Assembly: GCA_964554805.1 (NCBI GenBank)
Contig: CAZKPX010000001.1
Coordinates: 317,798-381,797 of the forward strand
Source of the DNA: an uncultured Candidatus Saccharibacteria bacterium
GTDB lineage: Bacteria; Patescibacteriota; CAZHWT01
DNA: 64,000 nt
Direction: 5' to 3'
Position 1 is the stretch's first letter, and each line of letters begins with the position of its first letter. Below are positions 5,102 to 58,997 of the stretch, one piece after another. A program made the position numbers and the translations under genes. The notes below the pieces were generated by a model. It made no database searches, was not told the DNA's origin, and was given only the letters and a program-made list of their open reading frames with translations.

Positions 5102-5146
5102 TTGGCTGAAAGCCAATTAATCGGATATGGTAGATAGGATATAGAA

Positions 5147-5192
5147 TATCGAATAAAAGCCGCTGCAAGTTCAAAAACTCAACAGCGGCTTT
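5147..5192 (+). terminator. rho-independent terminator after rpoD
   Basis: aaagccgctg..cagcggcttt stem followed by a T-run. Confidence 0.65.
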
Positions 5193-13269: not shown

Positions 13270-13335
13270 AGGAGAAGTTTTAGCGTAAAGATTACTTCTG
13301 TCCCAATTAAGATTCAAGGTTGCTTGAGTTTTGGT

Positions 13336-13470
13336 TGGGGGAGGAGTGGTATTAAGACGCTACTTCTTTCGACCCCGTACCGCGTAAGCGGATTGAGTGA
13401 TTCTCAATAGCCTTGGTCGCTTGATTAAGGCTTTCCTGGCGGTGCAGACCGCCGCCGCCCATAGGAGGGC
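13336..13470 (+). promoter_or_regulatory. R2 conserved structured leader upstream of the ORF starting at 13474
   Basis: Shared with 20419-20547: G-run closing stem, ccgc-GNRA-gcgg hairpin (gtaa vs gtga), variable hairpin, ggcggt-gcag-accgcc hairpin just before the GGAGG RBS. Confidence 0.5.
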
Positions 13471-13473
13471 GCA

Positions 13474-13968
13474 ATGGCTATCGTGAAGACAAGCGATGTT
13501 GGTATCCGAGTCAATCAACTCTCTCTAGGGATGTGGAGAGAGTTGGGAATAGAGAAGCCTTCCAGGTTTTCTTTATGGGACTACCTGGAAGGCCTCGACA
13601 GGTCCGTCGAGGCCTTGGGCCTCAGGGGAGTGGCAGTAGCCTCAATGAGGTTCCTGCCAGACGCTGCGGTTGTCATCGTATGGGAGCTACGACTCCCGTA
13701 CGATGAAGCTAGGCGGTTCGAAAGTCTATCTGATGGGCAGAAGGAGCGATTCCTTCTGCCCTTAGACAAACCGCTTGAATTCTCGGAAAAGATTGTGAGC
13801 CTCAACACGGAGAGAAACACCCCTCCATGGGAGAGACTCACAATCTCTGGGACGGATTCGTCTCAGTCGTATCTTAGCAGGCCGACAGATCTCTTGCTTC
13901 AGTCGGAGGCGGAGGCTGCAATTGCAGCTTACCGCAGTCGGCTCGAGGAGCTGGTCTCCTCGCTGTAG
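13474..13968 (+). CDS. hypothetical protein
   Basis: 164-aa ORF; GGAGG RBS 5 nt upstream; preceded by the R2 leader. Confidence 0.5.
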   Translation: MAIVKTSDVGIRVNQLSLGMWRELGIEKPSRFSLWDYLEGLDRSVEALGLRGVAVASMRFLPDAAVVIVWELRLPYDEARRFESLSDGQKERFLLPLDKPLEFSEKIVSLNTERNTPPWERLTISGTDSSQSYLSRPTDLLLQSEAEAAIAAYRSRLEELVSSL

Positions 13969-14116
13969 GTTTTTCTAGCGGTCGCGACCGCTTAGCCCGG
14001 GGTTGACCGGGTGATCTCGAAGCCGTTTGCGTAGAGCGGCATCAACTAGTCTTCTCTACGTCCAGCGCACTGCTGCTGGGGTTAATGACAGCCTGTCATT
14101 GACTAGAAGTGCAGAC

Positions 14117-14310
14117 AAATCCGCAAACCTCTGAACCGTCAGGAGCGGTATTCGCCAATCCGGCGAAGTCCCCGGTTCAACTTCCTCAGGTTGCGACTCC
14201 TTGTCGCACCTGAGGGAGATTCCCTCGGCAGCATCCGCCAACTGGCGGAGATACGCCTCCTCGTGGCGCTGCTGGATAGTCTGTCGAAAGACAGATGAAC
14301 TAAGTATCTA
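14117..14310 (+). repeat. R1 structured repeat copy 2
   Basis: Collinear with 13077-13269. Confidence 0.65.
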
Positions 14311-14328
14311 GCATCAGAGACTTTCTGT

Positions 14329-14431
14329 CTCACTTAGTGGTTAACCTGTTTTTGTTGGTCTTACGATTGTTCTTCTCGTCATTGCGAGAAGCGTAGCGAC
14401 GCGGCAATCTAGTGTTTCGACCATTAAGTGA
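14329..14431 (+). repeat. R3 structured repeat copy 2
   Basis: Closing helix ctcacttagtggtt / gaccattaagtgag; the same core as copy 1. Confidence 0.6.
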
Positions 14432-14568
14432 GGGAGAAATCTCTCTGAAGAAAAGAATCAAAACCCTGGGGAAACTCAGGTCTCTGCCCGTCAGCAGAGG
14501 GAGTGAAGTGTAGTGGCCTGGCAGCGTGCCAAAGCCCGTACCGCTTATGCTCCGCATCCTGTGAAAGG

Positions 14569-15250
14569 GATGAACATGAACTGGCAGTTGATTTTTTCAG
14601 TGGCCTTCGTGGCCACTGTGGCGATCGCTATGATTGCCTTCGCCGGCCGAGAAATCGGCGAGGTGAAGGCGGGCGCCGCCGCCGCGGCGCGAAAGGCCGC
14701 GGCTACGGCCGCGGAGGCTACCGCCCAGAAATGGGCGGTGAAGTACCGCAACCTGGAGGTCCTTCGGGACCTCCAGGCTCTCTTCGGAAGCACCCCTGTG
14801 ACGATCTTTGGATCGTCACAGAAGGGGGGCGGTTTCACCGCCCCCGAACGACCGTCCGACCTCGACCTGATGGTCGAGGTTGACGACGAGACCTGGGCGG
14901 AGTGGGCCGCCCAGGTCTACCCGGCAGATCTCGTCGGGGCGGAAGCCCCCCCAGTTTACAACGACAACTGGGGCGGTGGCGAGACCGCTCTGGTTAGGGG
15001 GAGGACAATCACCGTTCTCCCTTACGAGACGGTCTACCCGACGCGCATTGCGCGCCGGGAGGCCGCCCAGGAGATCCTAGGCATCGAGATTGAGCCCCTC
15101 GGGCTCAATCTCGACATCTTCCTCTTCCCGCACTCGTTTGTGCGGGAAGAGATGACCATCCCGGCTTGGGATGGTGCGGAGACCGGAAGGTCTTTCCGGG
15201 AGGAGGTCCTGGCAGGAGTCAAGCTCTCTGAGCTTCAGCCTGCGGACTAA
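14569..15250 (+). CDS. nucleotidyltransferase (Pol-beta/MNT superfamily) with an N-terminal TM helix
   Basis: Motif IFGSSQKGGGFTAPERPSDLDLMVEVDD (GS-x9-SDxDL); N-terminal hydrophobic helix WQLIFSVAFVATVAIAMIAF; Ala-rich linker. Confidence 0.6.
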
Positions 15251-15439
15251 TGACCCTCAGCGCACTGCTGCGCTGGCTGACGACGCATTCGTTGGCGAAA
15301 TGAAGCAGATAGACCTTACCTCGGATCCTTCGCGACTGAGATGGTCGAACCCCGGGGAGCGTAAGCTCTCTGGGGAAACCCATGGCAGCAATTGATTCGC
15401 CTCTACGATGGCTCGCCTAGCCGAAATGCTAGTGCAGGC

Positions 15440-15511
15440 TGGCGCTGCTTCCGCCGGTTGGCGGACTGGTCTTTTGACCAGAGATGAATCCGTCTTGAAC
15501 GGTAAACCAAG
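15440..15511 (+). repeat. three-hairpin structured element, b/e family copy 2
   Basis: tccgccggttggcgga, then ctggtc-tttt-gaccag, then ccgt-cttga-acgg, then taaaccaag. Confidence 0.55.
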
Positions 15512-15661
15512 AATCAAAAATAAACGACATTGATGTCTCCAGGCTACTTGCTGGGGAACAATCAGGGGGCTTTTAACGTTGACCCCTGGTTGTTCCTTGG
15601 GCAGGGAACTAAAGCCAGCCGCGGGTGCGGTAGGCTGAACAATTGCCCTAGAGGAGGCCCT

Positions 15662-16012
15662 ATGGCCACCAAATTCATCAATCTAACCCCTCATACGATC
15701 AATGTTGTTGTTGTTGGGGAGGAGGGTGACGTTGTCGCCTCCTTCCCGGCTTCGGGACAGGAGGCTCGGGTGGCAACCACCCGGGAGCTGTCTCATAACC
15801 TCGACGCCGATGGTGTCGGGATCCCGGTCTTCAGGACCGGGTACGGGGAGATCGAGGGGCTGCCGGCCCCCGAGGCCGGCACTATCTTCGTCGTCTCTGG
15901 TCTGGTGGCTGCGGCCACCGACCGTGATGACGTCGTCTCTCCGGGCGAACTCGTCCGGAACTCCGAGGGGCAGCCGATTGGCTGCCGGGGGTTCTCCCGC
16001 CCCGCTCGATAG
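15662..16012 (+). CDS. hypothetical protein
   Basis: 117 aa from ATG 15662 with a gaggagg RBS; the longer ORF is open from 15530. Confidence 0.45.
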   Translation: MATKFINLTPHTINVVVVGEEGDVVASFPASGQEARVATTRELSHNLDADGVGIPVFRTGYGEIEGLPAPEAGTIFVVSGLVAAATDRDDVVSPGELVRNSEGQPIGCRGFSRPAR

Positions 16013-16209
16013 GGAGAGTTCGGTGGGTGTCCGAACTAAAATAACCACCCCAATTCCAGCCAGTGTGTCTGTGGCTGGGGGTTGGCTGTTGCTTGCAGCT
16101 GACGAAACAAATCTTCGGACATAGGGACCTAACCTGCTGCGGAAGCCTTTGGGTGACTAAGGCAATATCGGTTCCGGCTCCTGGGATGGTGAGATTACTC
16201 ATCGTTCTA

Positions 16210-16303
16210 GGAGACCTTCGTGGCAGCATCCGCCAACTGGCGGAGATACGCCTCCTCGTGGCGCTGCTGGATAGTCTGTTGAAAGATGGATGAACTAAGT
16301 ATC
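16210..16303 (+). repeat. R1 repeat, 3' half only
   Basis: ggcagcatccgccaactggcggagatacgcctcctcgtggcgctgctggatagtctgttgaaagatggatgaactaagtatc. Confidence 0.6.
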
Positions 16304-16658
16304 AGAAGGAAGAGTTTATTTTTGTTCTTAGCCCGTTGCTCTTAGGTGCCTAGTTGACCCTATTGGAAGATAGGGCCAATGGGTTGATTATTTAGCTGAG
16401 AGCAGCGTGGTGGGAATGAAAGAGTTGACGGCTTCTCGGGTGAGGAGCTTTTGGTGTATCTGGGGAGTGAGCAGGTATGCCGGGAGCTCCTCATTGAGGA
16501 GCGCAACCTAGGTGAATTGCAGTAAAAACTCTTTTGGGCAACCCTGCCCGATGCCGTAGGTGCTCTGGATGAAATTGAGCGCTGAATGGAAGTCAGTTAA
16601 AGACTGGCCGAGCAGGGTGGGTATTGTCGCGAGACGCCCCTGGCTCGAAGGAGTTGCT

Positions 16659-19600
16659 GTGAGCAACAATATTCTTCTTCCAATCTCCGCTTATCGGGCG
16701 GAGATTGAAGCAGGGGTGGATGGCGATTCGGTGGTGGTTGTCACCGCTGAAACGGGGACTGGGAAAAGCACGCAAGTGCCGCAGTACATGTTGGAGGCTG
16801 GGTATGATCTGGTAATCACCCAGCCGCGTCGGCTGGCCGCCCGAACAGTGGCCCAGCGAGTGGCCGAGGAAATCGGTCAGGAATTGGGCGGAATTGTTGG
16901 TTATCGGACGGCGGAGGATCGGCGAGATTCGTCGGACACCCGCTGTTTATTCGTGACCGATGGTCTTCAGCTTGTTCGCGAGCTGATGGGTCATGGGAAG
17001 CGGCAAGTTTTGATTCTGGACGAGGTCCATGAATGGAACGAGAACCTGGAAGTTCTCGTTGCCTGGGCCAAGCTCCAGATCGAAACTGGAGCTGATTTCA
17101 AGCTAGTGCTGATGAGCGCTACGCTTGAAGCCGACAAGTTGGCCGCCTATTTTGGTGGTGCGCCAGTTATCTCGGTTCCAGGCCGACTGTTTCCGGTGAC
17201 GGAGCAGAAGCCAGGAGGTTCGGTGGAAGCCGACGTTGCGGAGCTGGTTCGCCAGAGGCGCAATACACTGGTATTCCAGCCGGGCAAGGCGGAGATTGAG
17301 GCCACCTGTGCTGCTTTGCGGCAGATGCAAGTGTGGGCTGAGATTTTGCCTTTGCATGGGCAGTTGACCGCCGAGGAGCAGGCTCGCTGCTTCCGGCATT
17401 ACGGTAAACCCAAGGTGGTGGTGGCATCAAATGTGGCGCAGACCAGCGTCACAATTGACGATATCGACGCCGTTGTCGACTCCGGCATGGAGCGACGGAT
17501 TGAGTTGGTGGATGGGGTTGAGGGCTTGTACCTTAAGCCTATTTCGCTGGCTGATTCTGCGCAGCGCCGGGGTCGAGCTGGTCGGACGAAGGCAGGGATC
17601 TATATCGATCGCTGCCCGAGTGTCGACCGACCGGAGTTTCCGGTGGCCGAGATCCTGCGCAAGCGGCTCGACCAGACGGTACTCCGGTTGGCCAGTGCTG
17701 GGTTTGACATGGAAGAGCTGGAATTCTTCCATCAGCCTGACAAGGCTGACATCCACGAGGCTCGTCAGTCTCTAGTGGCTCTCGGCTGCATGACAGCGGC
17801 TGGAGAAGTCACATCGATGGGGAGACGGGTTAACAAGCTGCCGGTGTCAGTGCAGTATGCGCGGATGCTGGTGGAAGCTGAGCGGTTGGGGGTGGTGGAC
17901 GATCTCCTGACTGTGGCAGCTATCTTGGAGCAGGGCGGTATTACAGTTGCCCCCCCAAGTCGGTCTAATCTGACCCGACCTGATTGGCGCCGAATGGTGC
18001 CGCAGGAGCAGGAGTCGGATATTCTTGGTCAGCTGGTTGTCTATAAAATGGCAGCTGAGATGACCAATGACCAACTCTATCAGAGTGGGGTGGCTCTGAA
18101 GGCCTATTATCGGGCTAAGGAGATCCGCTCTCATTTGGCGAGGGCTCTGGGCGCTCGGTTCCATTCTGGTTCAACGGGTCGCCGCGAGGACATCCTCAAA
18201 GCGGTCTGTGCCGGGATGGTTGACCATCTCTACCATGGCACTGGTGGGGGATGGAAGAATGGTGACGATACTGTCCGAGAACTGGGCAGTTCGTCGCTGG
18301 TTCAGAATGCCAGTTGGTTGGTGGGTCGGCCTTTTGACCTGCAGATCAAGGCACGCTATGGGCATACCACCCTGCGCCTGATCGAGCTGGCGTCAAAGGT
18401 TGAGCCGAACTGGCTGGTCGAAGTCGCTCCGCATTTGGTGGAGCAACAGACTGGCCTGCAACCTCGCTTTGATGACCGGAAGGGGGTGGTGGTTTCGACC
18501 ACCAAGACTCTCTTTAATGGTCAAGAAGTGGGGGAAGAGGAGGTTGTGGATCGGGAGCACCCCGAAGCAGCCGATCTCTTTGCTGGCTGGCTGGCTGGGC
18601 TGAGTCAATCTCGGGCGGAGAGTCTGGGGTTGGAAATTATGGTTCGCAATCTGGCTCGCAACCAACGAGCTAAGGAGCTGAACCAGCGGGCCGGCGAGAC
18701 CCTCTTTGGGGTGGTTGAGCTGCAGGCTTGGTATCTTGCCAAGCTGGAGGGCGCTGGCAACTTTAAGGAGGTGGTGGAGAAGCAGGTGGCTGCGAAGTGC
18801 CTGCTGCCCGATCTCGACCAGGATTTGATTGATCTGGTGCTCCAAGAGCAGCCAGACTCGATTGAGTTGCTGGGCGAAGGCCTGAAAGTAGAGTATGTTG
18901 ATGGCTACGGTCATCGGCGTACTCACCCTAGAGTTCGGTTGTCGGATCAGCAGATTCAGGCGAAGGCCTGGCTTGAGCTGTCTGATGACCAGCCGGTTCG
19001 CCTGTCTGGCGGGCGAATGGTTGAAGTGGCGGTTGAAGTGGCTTATACTACTTTCTCCTCTACTGAGCCATTCCTGCTGAAGGAGCGGGTGCGCGAGTAC
19101 CTGAACCAGAAGCAGTGGGACGCCTGGCATCGACCAGAGGTCTCAGTTGAGGGGCTGGAGTCGGCAGATCAGATTCCGTTTATGACCGCTGTCTATGGAC
19201 AGTGCGTGGTGACGGGGCAGGATCTGCTGGCTTACGGTACCGTTCGGGCACGCCGGTATTGGTCCAGGATTGATCGCTGGCAGCCGGTGTGGGTTCGGTC
19301 TCTTGATGAGGCTGAACGGGTTCGATCCGAGGCAGTGGCAGCACTTGAAGAGGTGCGAGCTGAAGCTGAGGTGAAGGCTATGGAGTCCAGATTGAAGATT
19401 CTGGATGCCCATAACGGCTGGTTCTACCTTGATCGCTCGTCGGAGGCTTATAAGCGCCTTCAGGGCATAATGGTAGAAGTCCCGCCCGCTAGTCGGGAAT
19501 GGTTGATAGAGGCGGGGCGACTGGTTGAAGAGCTGGCTCCTGCCCTTGAGCAGGCCGAGCAAGATGGCTTGGCTGCTGAACAGGCAGCTAAGGCTGAGCA

Positions 19601-20090
19601 ACAGCAGATCGAAGAGAAGGCGGCTGGAATATTGGCTGCGGTCAATCCCAGTGGTCATCACAACTTTGGTTTGGCTGAGGTTCGGTTGGCGAGCCAGTTG
19701 GCCGAACAAGCGGTTCGGCTGGTGGGACAAGCCCGGGCTCAGGCGATCTTCCGAGAGGAAGCGGATGCTTCTTATCGAAGATCGCTCAAATGTCAGCGAA
19801 TCAGAGAGGCTATTCCTGGTTTGTTTGACACGGAAGTTGGGTCGCGGTTCCTCCAGATTCCGGCGCGGTATGTCACCGAATGGTGGTTGCAAGCGACGGC
19901 ATTGTGGTTGGAATCGAATACCACCACGTCGACCGAGGAGTTGCCTGCTCCTGCTCCTGCTCTGATTGAGCTGGAAGAGCAGCCGACGGTGTCAGTTTTG
20001 GCTGTCAAAGAACAGTCTGCCGAGGAGGCAGAAGAGTCTTTTGACAGTCCTATGGCGCTAGCAATGCGTCGGGCCGGGATTAAGTTTTAA
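16659..20090 (+). CDS. DEAH-box (HrpA/HrpB-like) ATP-dependent helicase with a roughly 450-aa C-terminal extension
   Basis: Walker A TGTGKSTQVPQ, DEVHE box, helicase-C and HA2-like region QRRGRAGR; GTG start at 16659 with an aaggag RBS matches the HrpB N-terminus (LPI..); the ORF is open from 16560. Confidence 0.85.
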   Translation: MSNNILLPISAYRAEIEAGVDGDSVVVVTAETGTGKSTQVPQYMLEAGYDLVITQPRRLAARTVAQRVAEEIGQELGGIVGYRTAEDRRDSSDTRCLFVTDGLQLVRELMGHGKRQVLILDEVHEWNENLEVLVAWAKLQIETGADFKLVLMSATLEADKLAAYFGGAPVISVPGRLFPVTEQKPGGSVEADVAELVRQRRNTLVFQPGKAEIEATCAALRQMQVWAEILPLHGQLTAEEQARCFRHYGKPKVVVASNVAQTSVTIDDIDAVVDSGMERRIELVDGVEGLYLKPISLADSAQRRGRAGRTKAGIYIDRCPSVDRPEFPVAEILRKRLDQTVLRLASAGFDMEELEFFHQPDKADIHEARQSLVALGCMTAAGEVTSMGRRVNKLPVSVQYARMLVEAERLGVVDDLLTVAAILEQGGITVAPPSRSNLTRPDWRRMVPQEQESDILGQLVVYKMAAEMTNDQLYQSGVALKAYYRAKEIRSHLARALGARFHSGSTGRREDILKAVCAGMVDHLYHGTGGGWKNGDDTVRELGSSSLVQNASWLVGRPFDLQIKARYGHTTLRLIELASKVEPNWLVEVAPHLVEQQTGLQPRFDDRKGVVVSTTKTLFNGQEVGEEEVVDREHPEAADLFAGWLAGLSQSRAESLGLEIMVRNLARNQRAKELNQRAGETLFGVVELQAWYLAKLEGAGNFKEVVEKQVAAKCLLPDLDQDLIDLVLQEQPDSIELLGEGLKVEYVDGYGHRRTHPRVRLSDQQIQAKAWLELSDDQPVRLSGGRMVEVAVEVAYTTFSSTEPFLLKERVREYLNQKQWDAWHRPEVSVEGLESADQIPFMTAVYGQCVVTGQDLLAYGTVRARRYWSRIDRWQPVWVRSLDEAERVRSEAVAALEEVRAEAEVKAMESRLKILDAHNGWFYLDRSSEAYKRLQGIMVEVPPASREWLIEAGRLVEELAPALEQAEQDGLAAEQAAKAEQQQIEEKAAGILAAVNPSGHHNFGLAEVRLASQLAEQAVRLVGQARAQAIFREEADASYRRSLKCQRIREAIPGLFDTEVGSRFLQIPARYVTEWWLQATALWLESNTTTSTEELPAPAPALIELEEQPTVSVLAVKEQSAEEAEESFDSPMALAMRRAGIKF

Positions 20091-20418
20091 TCTTTGTCGT
20101 GAGGCGGAGGCCTCGTATCAATACTCCAGCGGCTTGTGTTGACCGCTGACTGCCTACAGCGTGTAGGTAGTAAATTCTCAACACATCGGGCCTGTCCGTT
20201 ATTGACGGAGAACGACCCATTGGGTAGGGGGCTAAAACCCCTACCTACTTTACGGCTGCATATACATGCCTCTTCGTGGCGTAGCTAGAAATTCGTTTAT
20301 GTGACGAAGCTAAATGTATGAGAAGTGGAAGAAAGCTTACTTCTGTCTCAATCAGAGCTTGAGACTTTAGGCGTAGATTCCGGATCTAGTCCGGAATGAC
20401 GGCCTTTTGAGCTTTGTT

Positions 20419-20547
20419 TGGGGGGAGAAGTGCTATTAAGACGCTACTTCTTTCGTCCCCGTACCGCGTGAGCGGATTCAGCATCTCAATCCCCGGCCAC
20501 TTGGCTGGGGTTGTTGGCGGTGCAGACCGCCCACGCCTTTGGAGGGC
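20419..20547 (+). promoter_or_regulatory. R2 conserved structured leader copy 2
   Basis: Homolog of 13336-13470, directly upstream of the ORF starting at 20551. Confidence 0.5.
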
Positions 20548-20550
20548 AAA

Positions 20551-20994
20551 ATGATCATCTGCCCCACCATTTACTATTGTCATCCCGGGCAGGAGATACT
20601 TCTGCCTGTGGGGGCGGTCCGTCTGCAAGGGCAGGCGGATGGTTGGTGGGTGGGGGAAGATATCCCTCATCTGCCGTTTGGCCAGAGAAGGGTGAAGGGA
20701 GGGGTCTTCATTGTAGAGGAGGACCTCTCCGATCCCTCGTTCTATGTGGAGGTTGTTATCCTCCACAATGTGAATGAGGGCCTGCCTGGGGCCATCCCCG
20801 CGCTGTTGATTGGGATTGGGGAAGCAGCGCCCCTTGCTGTCCCCAGTAAGAGTGCCTATCGCACTCTGACCGCCGAGGCTACATGTCCTCACTGCGGTTG
20901 TGGTCGCGATTTTAGGCAAAGCTGGGTGGCGGTCGAAGGCTGTTATTTCTGCGATACAGCCATTCGTTCCCCGTTCAGTATGAGCCCAAGCTAG
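20551..20994 (+). CDS. hypothetical protein with a C-terminal Cys4 zinc-ribbon
   Basis: CPHCGCG..x16..CYFCD; GGAGG RBS; the overlapping minus-strand ORF 20386-20919 was rejected. Confidence 0.45.
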   Translation: MIICPTIYYCHPGQEILLPVGAVRLQGQADGWWVGEDIPHLPFGQRRVKGGVFIVEEDLSDPSFYVEVVILHNVNEGLPGAIPALLIGIGEAAPLAVPSKSAYRTLTAEATCPHCGCGRDFRQSWVAVEGCYFCDTAIRSPFSMSPS

Positions 20995-21300
20995 ACTGAA
21001 CCCCGGAGAGCTGGAGGCTCTCTGGGGAACCCAATGGCAGTATCCCCAACTGGCGGAGATACGCCTCCACGTGGCGCTGCTGGAATAGTGCTTATTGTCA
21101 GGCTGAACTAAATTCTGCAGAATAAATCTGCGAATAAATCCAAACAGGATGACATTGAGTATTAACTGAGTATCTGAGGGAGAGTTTTTTCTGTCCGCTT
21201 TAGTTTTTTGATTATGAAAATTGATGCTATGGGTACGTTGTTGCTCGGTGTCGATGGTGAGTTAAAAGATTGAAGCGGGGAGATGAATGATGGAGGCTGG

Positions 21301-34093: not shown

Positions 34094-34225
34094 CCTGCTT
34101 AGCTGGCGAGTCTAGTGTAGAGAGATTCGGGAGGTAGTTCAATACAAGCGACGGGCGACGGGCGACGAGCGACGAGCCAGCTCGCACAAAGACACTAGAC
34201 AGAAGACAGAAGGCAGGGGACACGA

Positions 34226-35237: not shown

Positions 35238-35678
35238 ATGGAAGAATATACTTTGAATTATAAGGATGGAAGCCTGTGGGTTAAAGGATGGATGGAGAAC
35301 GGGCTGCAGCAAGGATATTGGGAATGGTTTCGCAAAGATGGGGTGAGGTTGCGATCGGGTCATTTTGAAAATGGTAAGGCGGTGGGTGAGTGGACTGCCT
35401 ATGATAAGCACGGTGAGGTATATACGGTTACGACTGCGCGTGACTTTGAGCGACGGGCGACGAGCGACAGGCGACAGGGGGAGGGGGATTTGCCGAAGGG
35501 TATTGGTGGGCCAGCTACGGCAGTCTTGAAGCTTGAAGGTTTGGTTTGGTTGAAAGACATTGCTCAGAAAACAGACAAGGAGTTGCTGAGCTTGCATGGA
35601 GTTGGGCCTAGGGCAGTGCGGATATTGAGGGAAACTATCCTGGGCAGTGCCGAGAAGGATCTTGAGACGCGGATATAG
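35238..35678 (+). CDS. MORN/YwqK-like repeat protein with a C-terminal helix-hairpin-helix
   Basis: GxWxxYxxxGxL-type repeats (GYWEWFRKDG, GEWTAYDKHG); C-terminus LHGVGPRAVRIL; contains an in-frame GCGACRAG-repeat insert. Confidence 0.45.
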   Translation: MEEYTLNYKDGSLWVKGWMENGLQQGYWEWFRKDGVRLRSGHFENGKAVGEWTAYDKHGEVYTVTTARDFERRATSDRRQGEGDLPKGIGGPATAVLKLEGLVWLKDIAQKTDKELLSLHGVGPRAVRILRETILGSAEKDLETRI

Positions 35679-41402: not shown

Positions 41403-41681
41403 GGCGATGAGTATACTACATTAGGGGAGGTACGAGATGCGTAGCCGCCTTTGGCGGCGGATATCGAGACGCGAGACAGGAGTACAGGAAGAGCTTACTT
41501 CCCCTACGTTTTTTGGTGATTTACGATATCCCATATCCCATACCCGCCACCAAAGGTGGCTGTGCTGTGTGGTAAGAAATAGACGAGTACAGGGTTATTC
41601 TTCAAACGCAGAAGACAGAAGGTAGTAGGTGGGCGATAGGGGTTATTGACAGGCAGGCATGGTTGGCGTAGGCTTTAACTA

Positions 41682-44780: not shown

Positions 44781-47753
44781 ATGAAATGGCATCGACTGGG
44801 CGTTGCTGCCTTGGTCGTTATGCTGGTCCTGAGTGGACTGGCTGCGATCATAACAATGACCCAGGAAACCAACAATCCGACGTCAACGGAGACTACTTCA
44901 GAAGTAGCTCTGGTGTCGTCGGAGGAAGACGCTGCAAGCGGTGAGTTAGCCGTTAGCGATGAATCTGAAGCGGATGATTCCGCTGAAGACCAATCGTCAA
45001 CGGGTGACTTTCACCCGTTCTCGCAACAGCCGGCCTTGGAAGTCGTCAGGATGGAGTCGCCCATGGTGGCTCCAGATGACCTGTACGAAGTTACCGTTGT
45101 TCTGGTGGATGGTGCAAATCAACCCATCAGAGAGCGCACTTCAATACTGGTCGCGCACATGGATCTCCGGATCATGGATCCGGTTGTCCAGGGCGACTTC
45201 GTTAATGGCCAGGTTGAGCTGAACTTGGCGGAGGGTGAGTATTTAATTTCGGCGGTCCCTCAAAGACTGTCGGAGGATGCTCCTGTCCGCAATCTGTCAG
45301 CGCAACGGCTCGTGGTTTCCAGCAATGGTGACTTCAGCCTGTTGCCACTCAATGACAATCGTTTCGCTCAAGTTTCTGATTTGGATCGAGCTGGCAGAAT
45401 GCAGCTCCTGACCAATGAAGAAATGCGCCAGAAAGGACTAGGACCGACGGTTCTGGTCGAATCCCGGGTCATCTGGCCTGGGTCTGATGTTAACCCCGAT
45501 GCTCAACACAAACTGACGGTGAAGTCTATTCACTCTTCTGCGCAAGCCGAATGGGTGGAGACGATGATCTATCAACGCCAGAATGTGTCATGCGGCGAAT
45601 CTTCGGTCTATACACTGGCCGCTGATTCGAACATGGCCTACCTGGCTGATTCTACCGTTGGTTACTGGACAGCCTTGGCGTCATTTGATGAAGCCGGGTT
45701 TCTTTGCCAGCACGAGGTCGATGGCGCTCGCTATTGGCTGGTGCTGGCTGAGTTGTGTGGTAATGAAGGGATTCCCAGTGAGCCGCCAATCGAGGTGACT
45801 CCGGAATCAACCTCAACAGTAGTTCCCACCGAAGAACCAACCGAAGCTCCCACCGAGGAGCCGACGGAAGTTCCGACCGAGGAGCCAACAGAGGCTCCAA
45901 CTGAAGAACCGACCGAAACGGTAGTTCCGACCGAGGAACCGACCGAGGAACCAACGGCGACGGTTGAACCGACGGCAACTGCAACCGTGCTGCCTACGGC
46001 AACAGCGACAGTTGAACCGACCGCTACGGCGACTCCCACAGAGAAGCCGACAGAGGTCCCGACAGCTACGCCCGAACCAACCGCGACGGCTACGCCAGAG
46101 CCGACGGCAACAGCGACGCCCGAACCAACAGCAACAGCGACCCCGGAACCAACGGCAACGGCGACACCTGAGCCTACGGCAACAGCGACGCCCGAGCCTA
46201 CAGCAACGGCAACACCCGAGCCCACGGCTACAGCGACGCCCGAACCGACCGCGACGGCTACACCTGAGCCAACAGCGACGGCTACGCCCGAACCAACCGC
46301 GACGGCTACGCCCGAACCGACGGCTACGGCAACACCCGAGCCCACGGCTACAGCGACGCCCGAACCGACCGCGACGGCAACGCCAGAACCCACGGCAACG
46401 GCGACACCTGAGCCTACGGCAACGGCTACGCCAGAACCGACGGCGACGGCTACGCCCGAACCGACGGCAACGGCTACACCTGAGCCCACAGCAACGGTGA
46501 CACCTGAGCCCACGGCAACGGCGACACCTGAGCCTACGGCGACGGCTACGCCTACGGAAGAACCAACAGTAGAGCCAACTCCGGATTGTCCGAAGGGGCA
46601 AAAGGAGTGTCCTCTGCAAACGGTGACGCCTACCTATGCTCCGGATGGTCCGCCGACGCCAACCCCAGCGCCTCCGTCAGTCACAACCACCCCAGAACCT
46701 CCACTGTGCCCACCGGGTACTGTGTGGAAAGACTGGGGGGAGCCCTCGGAAGTCGATGTTATCGGTGAGTGTGTCATACCGCCCAGCTGCCCTGTAGGTA
46801 GCGAGCACGTCGACCATAACGATAACCAATGGGTTGATGAAGGCGAATGCGTTGCCCCAACCCCGGTGCCAACAGAAGAATGTCCGAAGTGGCAGAAGGA
46901 GTGTGAACTCCAGACGGTGACGGAGACACCCGTCCCAGATGGTACGCCTACTCCTACGCCATCAGGAGAGTTGAACCTCTCCGAGATGGCTTCACGGGCA
47001 ATTGGGGCACTTGTGGAAAATAATGAGTCAACAGAAGAGGCTTCTGGCGTGGATGAACCCACCGAAGAAGCAGTCTCGGATGACTCTTCGACTGAAAACA
47101 CGGCGACCACAAGTACCGAAACAGCCGCAGAGGGAAGTGATCCGCTAGCACCTGACGAAGTGGCTTCTGAGTCAACGACTGAAACCGTGCAAACGGCACA
47201 GTCTCAGACGACCGAAGCAGCTTCTACGACAGAGGCGACTTCTGAAGCAACGACCGTGGCTGATGACACAACTTCACAACCCACGGAAGAAACTTCTGAA
47301 GGTCAGGGTGCAGAAGAGCAGACTCAAACCGTGGCGACAGAGGATACCAATCCACCTGTCGCGCCAGATGAGCCGGCTACGACGGACTTGCCCGCTGGGT
47401 CGAGTGACCCCAATAGTGGCCAAGTTACTACAACTGGTACTGGTGGTGGTGAAGGTACTGGTAATGGCGGCGGTGGTGACCCAGTTACCACCACCAATCC
47501 AGGCACCAATACCGAAACTGACACCAATCAGAGTCAGTCCGAACCTCCTGCAGCCGAGATGCCGGAGCCTGCAGCCGTACCGGTTCAGACTCCGGAACCA
47601 ACTCCCGTGGTCGTAGGGAATGTCCACACGACTTCGAATTCAGTGATGGCCAAACTGGCCTTCATTGGTGTTGGAGTCCTGAGCTTGGTGGTTGCAGTCC
47701 TGCACTTCCAGATTCAGAGAATCCGGGGATCAAGAATCGAGACAAGAGAGTAG
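44781..47753 (+). CDS. large repetitive surface protein (Pro/Thr/Glu/Ala-rich)
   Basis: N-terminal signal/TM; about 25 units of TPEPTATA; paired Cys motifs [16 protein letters not shown]; C-terminal TM anchor. Confidence 0.6.
45790..46570 (+). repeat. coding tandem repeat (24-nt unit acgcccgaaccgaccgcgacggct)
   Basis: About 25 tandem units inside ORF 44781-47753. Confidence 0.8.
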
Positions 47754-47984: not shown

Positions 47985-48683
47985 ATGAATACAATTGCAA
48001 AAATTCTATTATCAACCGCTTTAGTTGTTGTTTCTGCTTTGTCTGTAGCTCCTGTAGCTCAGGCTGTTGAATCTGAATCTTGTCCTTCTCATAGTGGGCG
48101 CAGCTACTGTGCTTACAAATTGGTAGACAAGGCTCAAGCTAAGGCTGGAGATGTTCTTACTTACACTTTGATCGTAAAGAATACCGGTTCTGTTAACCTG
48201 ACTAATGTACGTTTCGCTGAAAATATCCCAGCTAAGACTACTTATGTTATGGGTTCTAGCACTGCTAAGAAAGATACCGTTCCTTACTTTATCAATGATG
48301 CTTGGGTAGTGACTGGTAGCCAGGGTTATAACGCTGGCACTTTGCTGCCTAATCAGGTATTCACTATTACCTTTCAGGTAACTGTGAACGCTGATGTTAA
48401 GAACGCTGATGTTCTAGAGAACGTCGGCATGTTTACTGCTGACGGTTTCCTAGTTACTGAGGGTGAGCGTGAAGGTAAGCAGGATTGGCGTTTGTGTGCA
48501 GCTCGTACTACTGTGGTAGTCGATGTTGTACCTACTCCAACTCCTACTGTAACCGTAGCTCCAACAGTAGTTCCTACTGTTAAGCCTGAGGTTTTGCCTG
48601 CAACCGGTCCTGGCGCTGCCATGGCTGTTGTTTTGGGCGGTATGGTTGTGACTTTGGTAGGACGCAAGTTCTTCCAGAGCTAA
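47985..48683 (+). CDS. DUF11-repeat surface protein with an LPXTG sortase anchor
   Basis: LTYTLIVKNTGSVNLTNVRFAENIP (DUF11); C-terminal LPATG, then a hydrophobic stretch, then RK. Confidence 0.7.
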   Translation: MNTIAKILLSTALVVVSALSVAPVAQAVESESCPSHSGRSYCAYKLVDKAQAKAGDVLTYTLIVKNTGSVNLTNVRFAENIPAKTTYVMGSSTAKKDTVPYFINDAWVVTGSQGYNAGTLLPNQVFTITFQVTVNADVKNADVLENVGMFTADGFLVTEGEREGKQDWRLCAARTTVVVDVVPTPTPTVTVAPTVVPTVKPEVLPATGPGAAMAVVLGGMVVTLVGRKFFQS

Positions 48684-48697
48684 AAGCCAATAAAAAA

Positions 48698-48722
48698 GGC
48701 CACCTTCGGGTGGTCTTTTTTA
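48698..48722 (+). terminator. rho-independent terminator
   Basis: ggccacc-ttcg-ggtggtc followed by a run of 6 T. Confidence 0.6.
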
Positions 48723-48799
48723 TTGGAGTGAGAAGGAGAAGTGAGAAGGAAAAGTTTGTATGGTCTGTTTCTTATCGCTTCTTCTTTGCACTTGCTAAA

Positions 48800-48876
48800 T
48801 GGTGGGCGCGCATGGACTTGAACCATGGACCTGACGCTTATAAGACGTCCGCTCTAACCAGCTGAGCTACGCGCCC
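48800..48876 (-). tRNA. tRNA-Ile (anticodon TAT)
   Basis: Reverse complement gggcgcg-ta-gctc..gagc-g-gacgt-ctTATaa-gcgtc-..catgg-ttcaagt-ccatg-cgcgccc-a-cca. Confidence 0.7.
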
Positions 48877-48904
48877 ACGTAGACTTTATGTAATTGTATA
48901 ACTT

Positions 48905-49010
48905 TATCTGCTACCTAACTTATGCTCCAGTTGGTTAGAGCGGACTGGTCCGCTTATTATCTCTATTTCGGCTCCGCCTCCGCCGGTTGGCGGAGCAGCT
49001 GAGCTACGTT
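48905..49010 (-). other. tRNA-derived fragments interrupted by a ccgccggttggcgg hairpin
   Basis: The minus strand reads cgtagctcagctg and then ctccgccaaccggcggag; a 13-nt identity (cagctgagctacg) with the adjacent tRNA-Ile. Confidence 0.4.
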
Positions 49011-49155
49011 AAAAGTGCAGAATGGTTGCGAAGGGGCTTAGACAGATATACCTTATATTGGGGCTGGGCGTCAAGGAGTGGGGCTGATTAGTTCATGACT
49101 GGGTGAGCGAGGGGATGGGGTGGGGTTGTTTGCTCTGATACGGTATAATTACTTA

Positions 49156-49204
49156 CAGAGAACAGAGAACAGAGAACAGAGAACAGAGAACAGAGAACAG
49201 AGAG
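49156..49204 (+). repeat. heptanucleotide simple-sequence repeat (CAGAGAA)6 plus CAGAGAG
   Basis: Direct count; lies between a tataat -10-like box (49144-49149) and the sortase ATG at 49216. Confidence 0.85.
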
Positions 49205-49215
49205 CTTTATTAATT

Positions 49216-49923
49216 ATGGGTACATTGTATAAGAAGCCACAGGCGCCGAGACGCAAGAATCAGGCATTCCCGTGGTTAAAGATTGGCATTAATACGTTTA
49301 TTTTTGGCGGATTGCTGTATCTGCTAGTAAGCTTTTACCCAGTTTTGTCAGTTCAAGCTCAATATTATTGGGGGCAGTGGGCAAATAGGGGGGAGAGCGA
49401 ATATGTGGTAAGCGACCCTAAGCCGACTCCTGTAGTGCCGACTATCGGCGAGGGCCCTGCTTTGCCGGTTGCTCCTGTCAGCACTGACTTTAGCATTGTT
49501 ATTCCAAAGCTTAATATTAATGCGCCGATTGTGCCTGACGTCAATCCTGCTGACAAGAAGGCCTACCTGCGAGCCTTGGATGATGGGGTGGCCCATGCTT
49601 TAGGGACAGTCAAGCCGGGGCAGGTGGGGAACTCGTATATTTTTGCTCACTCGACAGCTAATTTGTTGAATATTGAGCGGTATGCTGCCGTATTTACTTT
49701 GCTGAATAAGCTTGAAGTAGGGGATCGAATCACTACTTTTTATGCCGGTCGCCGGTTCGACTACGCCGTGTCGAAGAGCTATATTGTAGACTTTACCAAT
49801 GTGACTCCTCTGACAAATACATACGACCGCCCAGTTTTGACCTTGCAGACATGCGATCCTCCTGGCACTGAGTTCCAGCGCTTGATTATCCAGGCTGAAC
49901 TGATCTCTGAATACACCAGATAA
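49216..49923 (+). CDS. sortase (class E-like transpeptidase)
   Basis: N-terminal TM; conserved His (IFAHS); TLQTCDPPGT (TLxTC active site); the ORF is open from 49120 through the SSR. Confidence 0.75.
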   Translation: MGTLYKKPQAPRRKNQAFPWLKIGINTFIFGGLLYLLVSFYPVLSVQAQYYWGQWANRGESEYVVSDPKPTPVVPTIGEGPALPVAPVSTDFSIVIPKLNINAPIVPDVNPADKKAYLRALDDGVAHALGTVKPGQVGNSYIFAHSTANLLNIERYAAVFTLLNKLEVGDRITTFYAGRRFDYAVSKSYIVDFTNVTPLTNTYDRPVLTLQTCDPPGTEFQRLIIQAELISEYTR

Positions 49924-53240: not shown

Positions 53241-55211
53241 ATGGATTCAACACATTCTTCGGGTAATCAATTGACTAAGGGTAAGAGTAGTGGCGCAGGG
53301 GGGCAGGGTGGCTGGATGAACAATAGCCGCAACTATCTGGTTTATTTCATTGCGGTCGTTATCGGATTGCTGCTTATTTATACTTATATTTTCCCTCATG
53401 ATAGTGCGCCAGATCAGATTAACCTATCTCAGGCGATCCAGGATATTAATGAAGGCAAAGTTAAGCGAGCTTTGATTGACGGCGATACTGTTACTTTGGA
53501 ATACAAAGAAGACGGCGAGAAGAAGACAACTACTAAGGAAGCTGGGGATACGTTTATTAATCAATTAGTAGCAAATGGCGTGTCTTTGGATAAACTTGAG
53601 ATCGAGCCAAAAGATACAAGCAGTGATGCATTCTGGGGCACCTTGCTATCTTTCTTGCCTATTATATTGATTGCCGCCTTCTTTTTCTTTATTCTGCGTC
53701 AGTCTCGTAATGCTTCCGGATCTTTATTTGCCTTTGGTAAATCGCGCGCTAAGATGTTTGCGCAGGATCGTCCTAAGGTTAAATTTAAGGATGTGGCTGG
53801 CGTTGATGAGGCCAAGCAGGAATTGGAGGAAGTTATTGAGTTCTTGCGAACTCCAGAGAAGTTCCAGAAACTGGGAGCCAAGATTCCTAAGGGTGTATTG
53901 TTGGTAGGCCCTCCAGGTACGGGTAAGACCTTGCTAGCTCGAGCTATTGCCGGTGAAGCTGGAACGCCATTCTTCTCAATTGCCGGTAGTGAGTTTATGG
54001 AGATGTTGGTGGGTGTGGGCGCGAGCCGGGTTCGTGATTTGTTTGATACGGCCAAGAAAGCTTCGCCGGCCATTATATTTATCGATGAGATAGATGCGAT
54101 TGGTCGCCAGCGCGGAGCAGGTTTGGGTGGTGGCCATGATGAGAGAGAACAAACTTTGAACCAGATTTTGGTGGAGATGGATGGTTTTGATCAGACTAGC
54201 AATGTGATTGTGATTGCTTCGACCAACCGCCCTGATGTATTGGATCCAGCTTTGTTGCGACCGGGTCGATTTGATCGACGGGTTATTATTGATTTGCCTG
54301 ATCTTGAGGGGCGCAAGGCTATTATGAGTATTCATATGCGTAATAAGCCGATTGAGGCCGGAGTGGATGTGGTGAAGTTGGCTCGTCGGACCGTTGGTTT
54401 CTCGGGAGCTGATTTGGAAAGCATGCTTAATGAAGCAGCTATTACGGCAGCTCGCAAGAATGCTAAGGAGATTACTGCCTTGGACCTGGAAGATGCTGCG
54501 ACTAAGGTTAAGATGGGGCCTGAGAAGCGTCGTTTGCAGACCGAAGAGGATAAGCGATCGACTGCTTATCACGAAGCGGGTCATGCGATCGTGGCTCGGT
54601 TTATGCCTGAGACGGATCCGGTTCACCGCATTACGATTGTGTCTCGCGGTATGGCTCTGGGGTACAACCTGATTTTGCCGACTATGGATCGTTATAATGA
54701 GACTAAGACGCGGTTGTTCTCGATTATTGCTTATGCGATGGGTGGGCGAGCTGCTGAAGAGCTGATTTATGGTGAGCCGACAACTGGGGCTTCGAATGAC
54801 TTTGAGAAAGCGACTCAGATTGCTCGGGATATGGTAACTCGATATGGAATGAGCGAGCTGGGGCCGATCAATTTGGTTGCGTCTGAAGAAGAGATGGTCT
54901 TCCTAGGGCGCGGTGCTGGTCATCGGACAAATTTTTCTGAAGACACTAATCGGAAGATCGATGGTGAGGTGAAGCGTATTCTGGATGAAGCTTATGCGGC
55001 TGCTCTGAAGACATTGAAGGAGCATAAGGATAAGTTGGAAATAGTGACCGATACATTAATGGATCAGGAAACTATTGAGGCTGAAGAGTTTGAGAAGATG
55101 ATGATGGAAACTGAAAAATGGAAGGCTGGGAAGGCTAAAGCTAGCGACAAGCGACAGGCGGCGAGCGACGAGGGTGGGGAGAAGAGAGAAGAGAAAAGCG
55201 AGAAGAAGTAG
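53241..55211 (+). CDS. ftsH: ATP-dependent zinc metalloprotease FtsH
   Basis: Two N-terminal TM helices; Walker A GPPGTGKT; SRH region; zinc motif HEAGHA. Confidence 0.9.
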
Positions 55212-56201: not shown

Positions 56202-58997
56202 GTGGTAATGAAGAAATTATTATTAGTTGATGGAAATGCTCAGCTACATCGGGCATATCATGCTATACCTCCGCTGACCACTCGGAGTGGGGAGCAGGTT
56301 AATGCTATTTTTGGATTTTGGTCGTTGTTTTTGCGATCGTTGAAGGATTTGGAGCCGGATGGGGTGGTGTTTACGTTTGATAAGTCGAGTAATACATTTC
56401 GACATGATATGTATGATAAATATAAGGCGACGCGGCAGAAGATGGAGCCTGATTTGGCGGCCCAGATTCCGAGACTGAAGGAAGTGGTGGCAGCCAGCAG
56501 GATGCCGGTGCTTGAGTTGGAGGGTTTTGAGGCTGATGATTTGATTGGGACGATGGCGCGGCAGGCTTTTGAGGGTTCTGATGCTTGCCAGGTTTATATT
56601 ATGACGGCTGATATGGACGCGGCTCAGTTGGTTAATGAGCGGGTGTCTATTTATACGGCTAAGCATAAAATTTCTGAAGTGGCTTTGTATGATGTGGCAG
56701 GGATTATAGAGAAATTTAAGGGGTTGAGGCCGGACCAGATTGTTGACTACAAGGCTTTGAGAGGCGATAGCTCGGATAATATTCCTGGTGTGGCCGGGGT
56801 GGGGGAGAAAACTGCTACTGATTTATTGTTGAGATACCAGCATCTGGACCCTATTTATGAGCATTTGACTGAGTTGCCTAATCGGGCTCAAATGTTGTTG
56901 GAACAGGGCAAGGACTTGGCTTATCTGTCGCAAAAATTGGCGACTATTAACACCGAAGCTCCGGTGTCGTTTGACTTTGAGGCTAGTGATATTGGGCAGT
57001 TTGATGGTGCGGCAGTGGGGGGATTGTTTCGGGAGCTTGAGTTTAGAAGTCTGGTTGGGAAGCTGCCGGTTAGTGAGCGACATGCGACAAGCGACAAGCG
57101 ACAAGAGTATTTAAGGGCTTCACTCCCTGTTACCGATAGCCTAGAGCTTGGAGGGGAGAATTTGGATAGAAGTGAGAAGAGAGAAGAGAGAAGCCAGCCT
57201 CTAGCCTCCTATGTCTTGGTAGAAAATGCGGTTGATTTGCAAAAAATCGTTGATGAGATAAAGAAATCTGGCGAGGTGGCTTTTGATACGGAGACGACGG
57301 GGGTGGATGTATGGCGGTCGGATGTGTTGGGAGTGTCATGTTCGGTGGAGGCGGGGACCGGTTATTATATTCCGGTGGCTGAATGGTCTATACCGTTGTT
57401 GAAGAGCTGGCTGGAGGATGAATCGATCAAAAAGATTGCTCATAACGCTAAGTTTGATGTTGAATCGTTGTTGCAAGTGGGAATTGAGGTGGCTGGAGTA
57501 AGTTTTGACACGATGTTGGCGGCCTATGTATTGAAAGAAGGCACCGGTCGGTATGGTTTGAAGGAGTTGGCTTTTGAGGAGTTGGGGATTAATGCTACGC
57601 CGATTACAGAGCTGATTGGGACCGGATCGAAGCAGTTGACGCTGGATATGGTGGATCAGCAGGAAGTGGCTCAGTATGCCGGCGCGGATGCTGATCATAC
57701 TTGGCAATTGTATAAAATATATAAACCGCAGTTTGAGGATCAGGATGGATTGCGTCGGATATTTTTTGATATTGAGATGCCAGTCAGTCAGGTTTTGACC
57801 AGTATGGAACGCAAAGGTATAGTGCTAGATAGCGAATTTTTGGCTGCTATGTCAACTAGATTAAGCGAACAGATTGGTCTGCTTGAGCAAGAAATTTATG
57901 CAGATGCCGGGCATGAGTTTAATATTAATTCGCCGAAGCAGTTGGGTGATGTTTTGTTTGATGAGTTGCATTTGCCGGTTAATAAGAAGACTAAAACTGG
58001 CCGCTCGACCGATGAGTCGGTGTTGCAGGGCTTGAAAGGGGCGCACCCGATTATTGAGCGAATATTACAATATCGTGAATTGTATAAGTTGCGCTCAACC
58101 TATGTAGATGCGTTGCCTCAGTTGGTGTCGCCTCGGGATGGGCGGATTCATACTTCGTATAATCAGGCGGTGGCGGCGACTGGACGATTGTCTTCGACCA
58201 ATCCTAACTTGCAGAATATTCCAATTAAGACTGAAGTAGGGCGGCGGATTCGCCAGGCTTTTTTGGCTAATCAGGGTCAAAAATTGGTATCGATTGACTA
58301 CTCCCAAATTGAATTACGATTGCTGGCATATGTATCGGGTGATAAGAACTTGATCGAGGCGTTTGCTAGCGGAGAGGATGTGCATAAGGCGACGGCGGCT
58401 AAGGTGTTTAATTGCTCTATAGCTGAAGTGACGAGTGATCAGCGGCGGGTGGCCAAGACAATTAACTTCGGTATTATGTACGGTCAATCGGCGCATGGGT
58501 TGTCTCAACAGTTGGGCATTGGGCGAGAGCAGGCGGCGACTTTTATTAGTGATTATTTCAAAGTTTACGACGGGGTGAGAGCTTATCTGGATTCATCGAT
58601 AGCTGAAGCTCATAAGCAGGGCTTTGTGGAGACGGTATTTGGTCGTCGTCGTCGGATTCCGGAGCTGGCTTCTAAGAATTTTATGTTGCGGCAGGGGGCT
58701 GAGCGAATGGCTATTAATATGCCGATTCAGGGAGCGGCTGCGGATATTATTAAGATTGCTATGATCGCAGTTGATGGATACTTGGAAAATAATACATTTG
58801 AGGCTCAGATGTTGCTGCAGGTGCATGATGAATTGGTGTTTAGTATGCCTGAGTCGGAAATTGCGGTGGTGGTGCCGAAGATTGTTGGGTTGATGGAGAA
58901 TGTGGGTGAGTTTGCGGAGGATAAAAAACCGACTGTACAATTGGTGGCGGAGGCGAAGGTGGGGGATAATTGGGGGGAGATGGTGGCTTTGGATTAG
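56202..58997 (+). CDS. polA: DNA polymerase I
   Basis: 5'-3' exonuclease N-terminus; 3'-5' exonuclease VAFDTETTG; polymerase motifs DYSQIELR and QVHDELVF; 931 aa. Confidence 0.9.
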   Translation: MVMKKLLLVDGNAQLHRAYHAIPPLTTRSGEQVNAIFGFWSLFLRSLKDLEPDGVVFTFDKSSNTFRHDMYDKYKATRQKMEPDLAAQIPRLKEVVAASRMPVLELEGFEADDLIGTMARQAFEGSDACQVYIMTADMDAAQLVNERVSIYTAKHKISEVALYDVAGIIEKFKGLRPDQIVDYKALRGDSSDNIPGVAGVGEKTATDLLLRYQHLDPIYEHLTELPNRAQMLLEQGKDLAYLSQKLATINTEAPVSFDFEASDIGQFDGAAVGGLFRELEFRSLVGKLPVSERHATSDKRQEYLRASLPVTDSLELGGENLDRSEKREERSQPLASYVLVENAVDLQKIVDEIKKSGEVAFDTETTGVDVWRSDVLGVSCSVEAGTGYYIPVAEWSIPLLKSWLEDESIKKIAHNAKFDVESLLQVGIEVAGVSFDTMLAAYVLKEGTGRYGLKELAFEELGINATPITELIGTGSKQLTLDMVDQQEVAQYAGADADHTWQLYKIYKPQFEDQDGLRRIFFDIEMPVSQVLTSMERKGIVLDSEFLAAMSTRLSEQIGLLEQEIYADAGHEFNINSPKQLGDVLFDELHLPVNKKTKTGRSTDESVLQGLKGAHPIIERILQYRELYKLRSTYVDALPQLVSPRDGRIHTSYNQAVAATGRLSSTNPNLQNIPIKTEVGRRIRQAFLANQGQKLVSIDYSQIELRLLAYVSGDKNLIEAFASGEDVHKATAAKVFNCSIAEVTSDQRRVAKTINFGIMYGQSAHGLSQQLGIGREQAATFISDYFKVYDGVRAYLDSSIAEAHKQGFVETVFGRRRRIPELASKNFMLRQGAERMAINMPIQGAAADIIKIAMIAVDGYLENNTFEAQMLLQVHDELVFSMPESEIAVVVPKIVGLMENVGEFAEDKKPTVQLVAEAKVGDNWGEMVALD

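Follow-up and report, generated by a model that had tools for sequence, protein, structure and literature searches.

A heptanucleotide repeat, (ATCTTTC)n, was reportedly described at hmw1A and hmw2A of Haemophilus influenzae by Dawid et al. in 1999. This 5′ untranslated region (5′ UTR) repeat affects expression (PMC12721329); it is pyrimidine-rich, has at least 11 units in the natural repeats covered by PMC12721329 and pairs with a G-rich segment to form a long hairpin that is cut by RNase III, with longer repeats giving less expression. A second repeat in a 5′ UTR, (AGAT)n of the surface-related Moraxella catarrhalis gene uspA2, is a tetranucleotide with 6–23 copies, documented strain variation and an expression optimum, its unit number tuning expression and not the reading frame, according to Attia & Hansen 2006 as cited in PMC4679880. 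Classic contingency loci of Haemophilus and Neisseria likewise consist of a pure short tandem repeat at a surface-related gene of a host-associated, small-genome bacterium, placed within the open reading frame (ORF) or between the −35 and −10 elements. Another type of array, found in marine Beggiatoaceae, Cyanobacteria and Bacteroidetes, consists of TAACTGA heptamers in direct repeats, which often lie just upstream of start codons lacking a Shine–Dalgarno (SD) sequence and are missing in close relatives; in Beggiatoaceae, translational regulation via an RNA-binding protein has been proposed for them (MacGregor 2015, PMC4679880). Cyanobacterial STRR arrays also have a 7-bp unit (PMC2670836). 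A literature search combining heptanucleotide repeats with Saccharibacteria returned no paper containing both terms, and no 5′-leader repeat of the kind reported here seems to have been described before in this phylum.

We analyzed a 64-kb stretch of DNA from an uncultured Candidatus Saccharibacteria bacterium, referred to below as the window. Direct reading of its sequence identified a perfect 49-bp array on the plus strand, (ACAGAGA)7, with zero mismatches, upstream of a sortase gene (Table 1). Tandem Repeats Finder reported the same array with period 7, 7.0 copies, 100% matches and a score of 98. The elements follow each other in the order TATAAT, tactt, seven ACAGAGA units, gctttattaatt and ATG, and within the inspected region (48700–49700) the sequence reads ...acggTATAATtactt(ACAGAGA)7gctttattaattATGGGTACA.... 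The initial annotation had located a heptamer tract between the TATAAT box and a sortase start codon and counted six perfect and one imperfect CAGAGAA units. Sequence and Tandem Repeats Finder bear out the location, and the count is right in that register, where the last unit is CAGAGAG, while all seven units are perfect in the ACAGAGA register. The assignment of the downstream gene was equally sound, its product matching the sortase family PF04203 in Pfam with an E value of 3.7e-22.

The array is the longest perfect tandem repeat with a period of at least 4 within the window and far beyond chance. Elsewhere in the window, ACAGAGA, a unit with six purines among its seven bases, was observed three times versus 3.7 expected, never in tandem, and no reverse-complement array of it is present there. 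An array of such purity would be expected to be slippage-prone. Searches of the tract against Rfam gave no family, at gathering and E-value thresholds alike. Triplex (H-DNA) formation was judged unlikely on inspection, the array not being a mirror repeat, and a role as an operator for Fur or another regulator was unsupported; to our knowledge, the tract resembles no known operator box, that of Fur included.

Table 1 Features of the sortase locus and promoter spacing in its relatives (positions refer to the window; L numbers denote loci of relatives).
Feature	Position	Strand	Basis or remarks
DUF11/CLIPPER-domain surface protein with LPATG sorting signal	47985–48683	+	PF01345; translation ends ...LPATGPGAAMAVVLGGMVVTLVGRKFFQS
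Bidirectional terminator hairpin after the LPATG-protein gene	48687–48726	.	Terminator-like site; 18-nt arms, 94% complementary, A/T-run flanks
tRNA-Ile(TAT), conserved upstream neighbor of the sortase gene	48800–48876	−	Same synteny in L001, L002 and L004
TATAAT −10 box of the sortase promoter, positional homolog of the relatives' −10 box	49144–49149	+	Sequence; upstream comparison
Predicted transcription start at the first repeat unit, 5–7 nt past the −10 box	49155–49157	+	Sigma-70 geometry and leaderless genes of the genome
(ACAGAGA)7 perfect heptanucleotide array, predicted 5′ leader of the sortase mRNA	49155–49203	+	Sequence, Tandem Repeats Finder, shuffles
A/T-rich 12-nt stretch GCTTTATTAATT between tract and ATG, without Shine–Dalgarno sequence	49204–49215	+	Sequence; anti-SD duplex −2.9 kcal/mol
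Sortase gene, 235 aa, true start ATG 49216	49216–49923	+	Pfam PF04203; 100% match to P0001, 235 aa; conserved N-terminus
TATAAT-to-ATG gap in relatives			L009, 6 nt; L004, 7 nt; L001 and L005/7, 8 nt; L008 and L010-14, 9 nt; L002, 11 nt

Upstream, beyond tRNA-Ile(TAT), a gene encodes a DUF11 protein ending in LPATG and a hydrophobic tail, which is likely to be a substrate of the sortase. As the opposite-strand tRNA gene and the terminator isolate the sortase gene from upstream transcription, it would need a promoter of its own. The order conserved in relatives is tRNA-Ile(TAT) (minus strand), sortase, NUDIX or S51 peptidase, XerC-like recombinase (minus strand), DivIC, FtsH, PolA and Fpg. A contig scan placed the closest public-genome loci in uncultured Candidatus Saccharibacteria, with sortase identities of 69% (L001) and 60% (L002).

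Other repeats occur in these surroundings. The spacer between the tRNA gene and the sortase promoter holds partial copies of tRNA-Ile(TAT), namely an 18-nt inverted copy (48847–48864 / 48928–48945) and a 13-nt direct one (48859–48871 / 48996–49008), which may be remnants of integration or rearrangement at the tRNA gene. Immediately past the LPATG-protein terminator, a purine-rich 13-nt unit is present twice at 48727–48752 (AGTGAGAAGGAGA / AGTGAGAAGGAAA). In the same surface-protein cluster, ORF 44781–47753 encodes a surface protein of 990 aa that is rich in Pro and Thr and has a membrane anchor at its C-terminus; within the ORF, a 24-nt unit recurring about 20 times (46065–46552) encodes (ATPEPTAT)n, likely a length-variable coding repeat.

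For comparison with other Saccharibacteria, we took the 130 nt preceding the sortase ATG from 12 loci, corresponding to eight distinct sequences. The window sortase begins with MGTLYKKP, and this N-terminus and its ATG are conserved in the relatives, whose shared motif is M(A/G)TLY(K/H)KP; the public gene model is likewise the 235-aa product starting at this codon (P0001). All eight distinct relatives (L001, L002, L004, L005/7, L008, L009, L010-14) have a TATAAT 6–11 nt before the conserved ATG, most with a TTGACA or TTGACT 17 nt further upstream, and none has an SD sequence or a repeat before the start codon. The relative with a 77% identical sortase (L004) also shares the upstream GGGGCGTCAAGG motif. 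With TATAAT this close to the ATG, standard sigma-70 geometry implies that the sortase mRNAs of the relatives would be leaderless or nearly so.

At the window locus, 66 nt lie between TATAAT and ATG, namely tactt, the 49-nt array and the 12-nt stretch. Because the relatives have TATAAT close to the same ATG without a repeat, the tract is a lineage-specific insertion or expansion in a former gap of ~7 nt. The window promoter lacks a good −35 element and was not called by a consensus scan. A scan combined with inspection found no TAnnnT hexamer 5–9 nt before ATG 49216 that could serve as an alternative downstream promoter for a leaderless start. Relative to the conserved −10 box, the position of the repeat implies that it is transcribed as a 5′ UTR from a predicted start. 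It begins 5 nt downstream of TATAAT, outside the −35/−10 spacer, and thus cannot alter promoter spacing.

Leaderless architecture is common in this genome. The pattern TATAMT-N5–9-ATG occurs 16 times in the window versus 4.15 expected, a number reached in none of 100 shuffles. TATACT or TATAAT lies 6–8 nt before ATG at, for example, the plus-strand starts 703, 5232, 6295, 8661, 27276, 28680 and 37044 and the minus-strand starts 39464, 41402, 56152 and 63499. Alongside these genes, others in the window carry clear, strong GGAGG SD sites. Judged by its upstream sequence, the sortase gene would belong to neither class, being neither leaderless nor SD-led: duplex energies with an assumed generic anti-SD were −2.9 kcal/mol for its leader and −12 to −16 kcal/mol for the SD-led genes at 47985 and 56208. 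AGAGAG, considered as a possible SD, showed negligible pairing with the same assumed anti-SD. It is thus probable that the insertion altered how translation is initiated, and it is likely to have affected the efficiency of initiation as well.

Folding predictions assigned little structure to this leader. The tract was wholly unpaired in the minimum free energy (MFE) and centroid structures, with an unpaired probability of 0.86 at seven units, and the 146-nt leader plus early coding region did not exceed shuffled sequences in stability (z-score −0.64). When the leader was rebuilt with 0–14 units, the MFE stayed at −20 kcal/mol and the mean unpaired probability of the start region (−12 to +12) was constant at 0.38–0.41. 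Given this lack of structural change, of a reverse-complement array and of an Rfam match, unit number is predicted to alter leader length only. The earlier suggestion that unit gain or loss would affect 5′ UTR length or structure is thereby narrowed: the tract does lie in the predicted leader, whose length would change, whereas predicted structure was the same throughout the 0–14-unit range.

To place the tract in its genomic context, we searched the window for arrays of period 7 with at least three copies and at most two mismatches, using 20 dinucleotide-preserving shuffles for comparison. The 64 kb contained 15 such arrays versus 0.05 ± 0.22 expected, and the same search yielded no period-8 or period-9 arrays in the window. 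Among them, the sortase tract is an outlier, with seven perfect units compared with at most 4.4 imperfect units in the others. GCGACRR forms tandem arrays of 3–4.4 units at five loci (3203–3282, 34144–34179, 35448–35478, 55143–55172 and 57076–57108) and a two-unit pair at a sixth site near 21919; all 14 of its tandem pairs lie on the plus strand and none on the minus strand. Often, another purine-rich heptamer array (GAGAAGA, AAGACAG or ACGGGCG) is found 20–60 nt past a GCGACRR array. By Pfam assignment, these arrays are located inside the DnaG primase gene, in the dnaG–rpoD gap, after rpoD, in the C-terminal tail of FtsH and in an interdomain linker of PolA, with those in dnaG, the ftsH tail and the polA linker in frame. 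In alignments, L008 and L009 lacked both the 32-aa tail of FtsH and the 24-aa insertion in PolA. Window arrays other than the sortase tract are mostly located in 3′ trailers or coding linkers and not beside start codons.

Across a total of 64 kb from relatives, only three heptamer arrays were detected, each at a different, unrelated site, including (CCTAGAA)3.7 at 6652–6678 of L002, which ends 14 nt before the polA ATG, and (CAGTAGT)4.4 between two tRNA genes at 9139–9174 of L001. Heptamer arrays are thus sporadic in Saccharibacteria and have multiplied in this lineage, at permissive sites that include housekeeping genes. Since arrays also reside in dnaG, ftsH and polA, some of them as lineage-specific insertions, tracts of this kind are not specific to surface genes.

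This pattern recalls the TAACTGA and STRR repeats: tandem 7-nt units are scattered in the genome in strong excess, the sortase array lies close upstream of an SD-less start (12 nt before the ATG), the corresponding intergenic region of relatives lacks it, and assemblies break there. In the TAACTGA and STRR families, however, hundreds of loci share one unit, whereas a single array in the window is built of ACAGAGA; recurrence of a unit is instead seen for GCGACRR, whose dispersed arrays resemble the cyanobacterial STRR and TAACTGA arrays, here in a CPR genome. Further differences are the phylum, Saccharibacteria, and the presence of arrays in frame inside essential genes.

The window has additional compositional peculiarities. 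GRATATN represents a second heptamer class (3793–3853, 5134–5155 and 41522–41546), with its units at 3793–3853, in the dnaG–rpoD gap, arranged as an inverted repeat, that is, a hairpin built of heptamers. GC skew is +0.2 to +0.5 in 2-kb bins over the whole window (G 30% and C 18.6% on the plus strand), is independent of gene orientation and is accompanied by T > A; at the syntenic loci of L008 and L009 it is near 0. The skew suggests an unusual, lineage-specific replication or repair bias. A segment at ~12000–21000 stands apart from the rest through its higher GC content (0.53–0.59) and far weaker GC skew; it includes a gene for a 1176-aa DEAD/Helicase_C protein (16560–20090) and was probably acquired horizontally.

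We classify the tract as an intergenic 5′-leader simple-sequence repeat that is most like the 5′ UTR repeats in how it would work and lacks both the HMW hairpin and the unit reuse of TAACTGA and STRR arrays. Under our preferred reading, which we hold to be somewhat more probable than not, the tract is a microsatellite of recent origin, probably prone to slippage, that serves an ancestrally leaderless gene as a passive, unstructured spacer in its leader. The microsatellite would have arisen within the short gap separating the −10 box from the ATG, as one outcome of a genome-wide spread of tandem 7-nt arrays in this lineage of Saccharibacteria. The conserved TATAAT would then direct transcription to start at or beside the first unit, and the resulting mRNA would carry a purine-rich, unstructured, SD-less leader of ~60 nt, (ACAGAGA)7-GCUUUAUUAAUU-AUG, in place of the 5′-terminal AUG of the relatives. 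Leaderless initiation would be abolished in favor of SD-independent, probably less efficient initiation on an open A/U-rich start region. Unit gain or loss would change leader length only, with a graded effect at most and neither a frame nor a promoter on/off switch. Some features sit less comfortably with a passive spacer: seven perfect units of a heptamer arrayed nowhere else may point to selection for mutability and not to mere youth, surface-display genes adjoin the tract, and the intact sortase ORF means that expression must still work from this leader.

A second reading, which we regard as fairly unlikely, takes the tract as a selected hypermutable 5′ UTR repeat that works as in hmw: the number of units would adjust how stable the sortase mRNA is or how well it is translated, and surface-protein anchoring would thereby vary across the population. 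As in hmw, a heptanucleotide unit lies between promoter and start codon, in a predicted 5′ UTR, and the downstream gene serves the cell surface; here, this gene encodes a sortase beside its LPATG candidate substrate, and the array is the longest and only perfect one in the window. Like uspA2, the locus would combine a 5′ UTR repeat with a surface-related gene, and both systems provide precedents for such tuning (PMC12721329; for the AGAT repeats, as cited in PMC4679880). The resemblance to hmw ends at the RNA, however. Neither folding nor the reverse-complement search provided the complementary segment and long hairpin that would form an RNase III substrate, and an HMW-like hairpin is ruled out by a tract predicted to be unpaired, with a structure indifferent to copy number. 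Furthermore, the sortase tract is purine-rich and has seven units, fewer than the natural hmw minimum given in PMC12721329, and its unit is a heptamer, in contrast to the uspA2 tetranucleotide. Similar arrays in housekeeping genes of the same genome also argue against tuning; the three sequencing runs gave identical sequence, with contigs that break at the tract.

The description of the tract as a classic slipped-strand locus for surface display holds only in part. A pure tandem repeat (seven perfect heptamers, 49 bp) does adjoin a gene with a surface-acting product, a PF04203 sortase with an LPATG-protein neighbor, in the manner of the Haemophilus and Neisseria loci, but the case is weakened by the arrays at dnaG, the rpoD flanks, ftsH and polA. 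Moreover, the canonical switching mechanisms are inapplicable because the tract lies neither in an ORF, the true start being downstream of it, nor in the promoter spacer, the two positions used by the classic loci.

Alternatively, the leader could recruit a protein that binds single-stranded RNA, for example S1, one with a cold-shock domain or some other OB-fold protein, at one copy per heptamer, and SD-less translation would be enhanced or repressed by it; we consider this quite improbable. An unstructured array of 7 × 7 nt that ends shortly before an SD-less AUG has a suitable anatomy, and the array before polA in L002 is similarly placed. Yet within the window the ACAGAGA array is unique to the sortase locus, leaving no regulon, and the other arrays mostly occupy 3′ trailers and coding linkers. 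Cold-shock proteins prefer pyrimidine-rich ligands, whereas the tract is 6/7 purine. In an account of repeats with the same anatomy, MacGregor (2015) cites CspB binding to heptamer repeats, and a TTCTTTT preference of cold-shock proteins is also cited there (PMC4679880).

An assembly artefact or mis-sized repeat is highly improbable. Short-read graphs loop on tandem repeats, and we examined k = 31 Logan assemblies of three runs (SRR16798008, SRR16798009 and SRR16797978), reached via neighboring proteins (the XerC-like recombinase and the LPATG protein). A literature search on these runs brought up no pertinent paper. All four Logan contigs from the three runs were 100% identical to the window and thus clonal. 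In SRR16798008, one contig (L015) ends and another (L016) begins ~30 nt inside the repeat, one from each side, as expected because a k = 31 graph should break at a tandem repeat. The repeat is therefore present in an independent assembly with at least ~5 units, these two contigs leaving the exact number of seven unconfirmed, and both flanks run into the same repeat with a 100% match to the window. In a protein search, the 235-aa sortase was found at 100% identity in one NCBI contig only, the next relative having 77%. Looking up the exact sortase protein, as its 235-aa and 267-aa forms and as P0001, yielded no contig DNA. Genome and metagenome contig scans for a second strain yielded only relatives with 60–69% identity, one of them truncated before the start.

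Lastly, a coding repeat, in which the sortase would start at GTG 49120 or TTG 49126, contain RTENREQ units and be turned on and off by frameshift, is effectively refuted: a mechanically called ORF from GTG 49120 (...LQRTENREQRTENREQRALLIMGTLYKK) does run open through the tract into the sortase, but both candidate starts precede TATAAT, the only −10 box, no relative has a counterpart of the N-terminal extension, each having a promoter directly before the conserved ATG, the database gene model begins at ATG 49216, and this codon would remain usable even after frameshift loss of the extension. The extended ORF is thus spurious and non-coding. It reads RTENREQ about 2.3 times, and not three times as stated in the initial annotation, whose argument that a unit change would shift the extended frame fails with the frame itself, given the ATG and N-terminus conserved in the eight distinct relatives. 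Nothing in our analysis shows an on/off switch role for the tract.

As it stands, the tract is an ordinary intergenic simple-sequence repeat in an interesting context, and the genome-wide heptamer phenomenon together with the GC skew is arguably more unusual than the sortase tract. Taken together, the extreme excess of 7-nt arrays and the extreme skew point to unusual replication or repair, which merits investigation. Even if neutral, the tract provides a clean natural case of a microsatellite that would make a leaderless gene leadered without an SD. If repeat length did tune expression, the heptamer burst of this genome could supply contingency loci. In the most far-reaching version, which we deem unlikely, a hypermutable rheostat working in 7-nt steps would vary the level of the sortase, as the one enzyme anchoring every LPXTG protein, and hence the whole surface coat, across the epibiont population, as the first CPR contingency locus. 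Should the tract vary and tune the sortase, a single repeat would let an ultra-small CPR epibiont that has hardly any regulators diversify its whole surface display, and such tuning would bear on the attachment of Saccharibacteria to their hosts.
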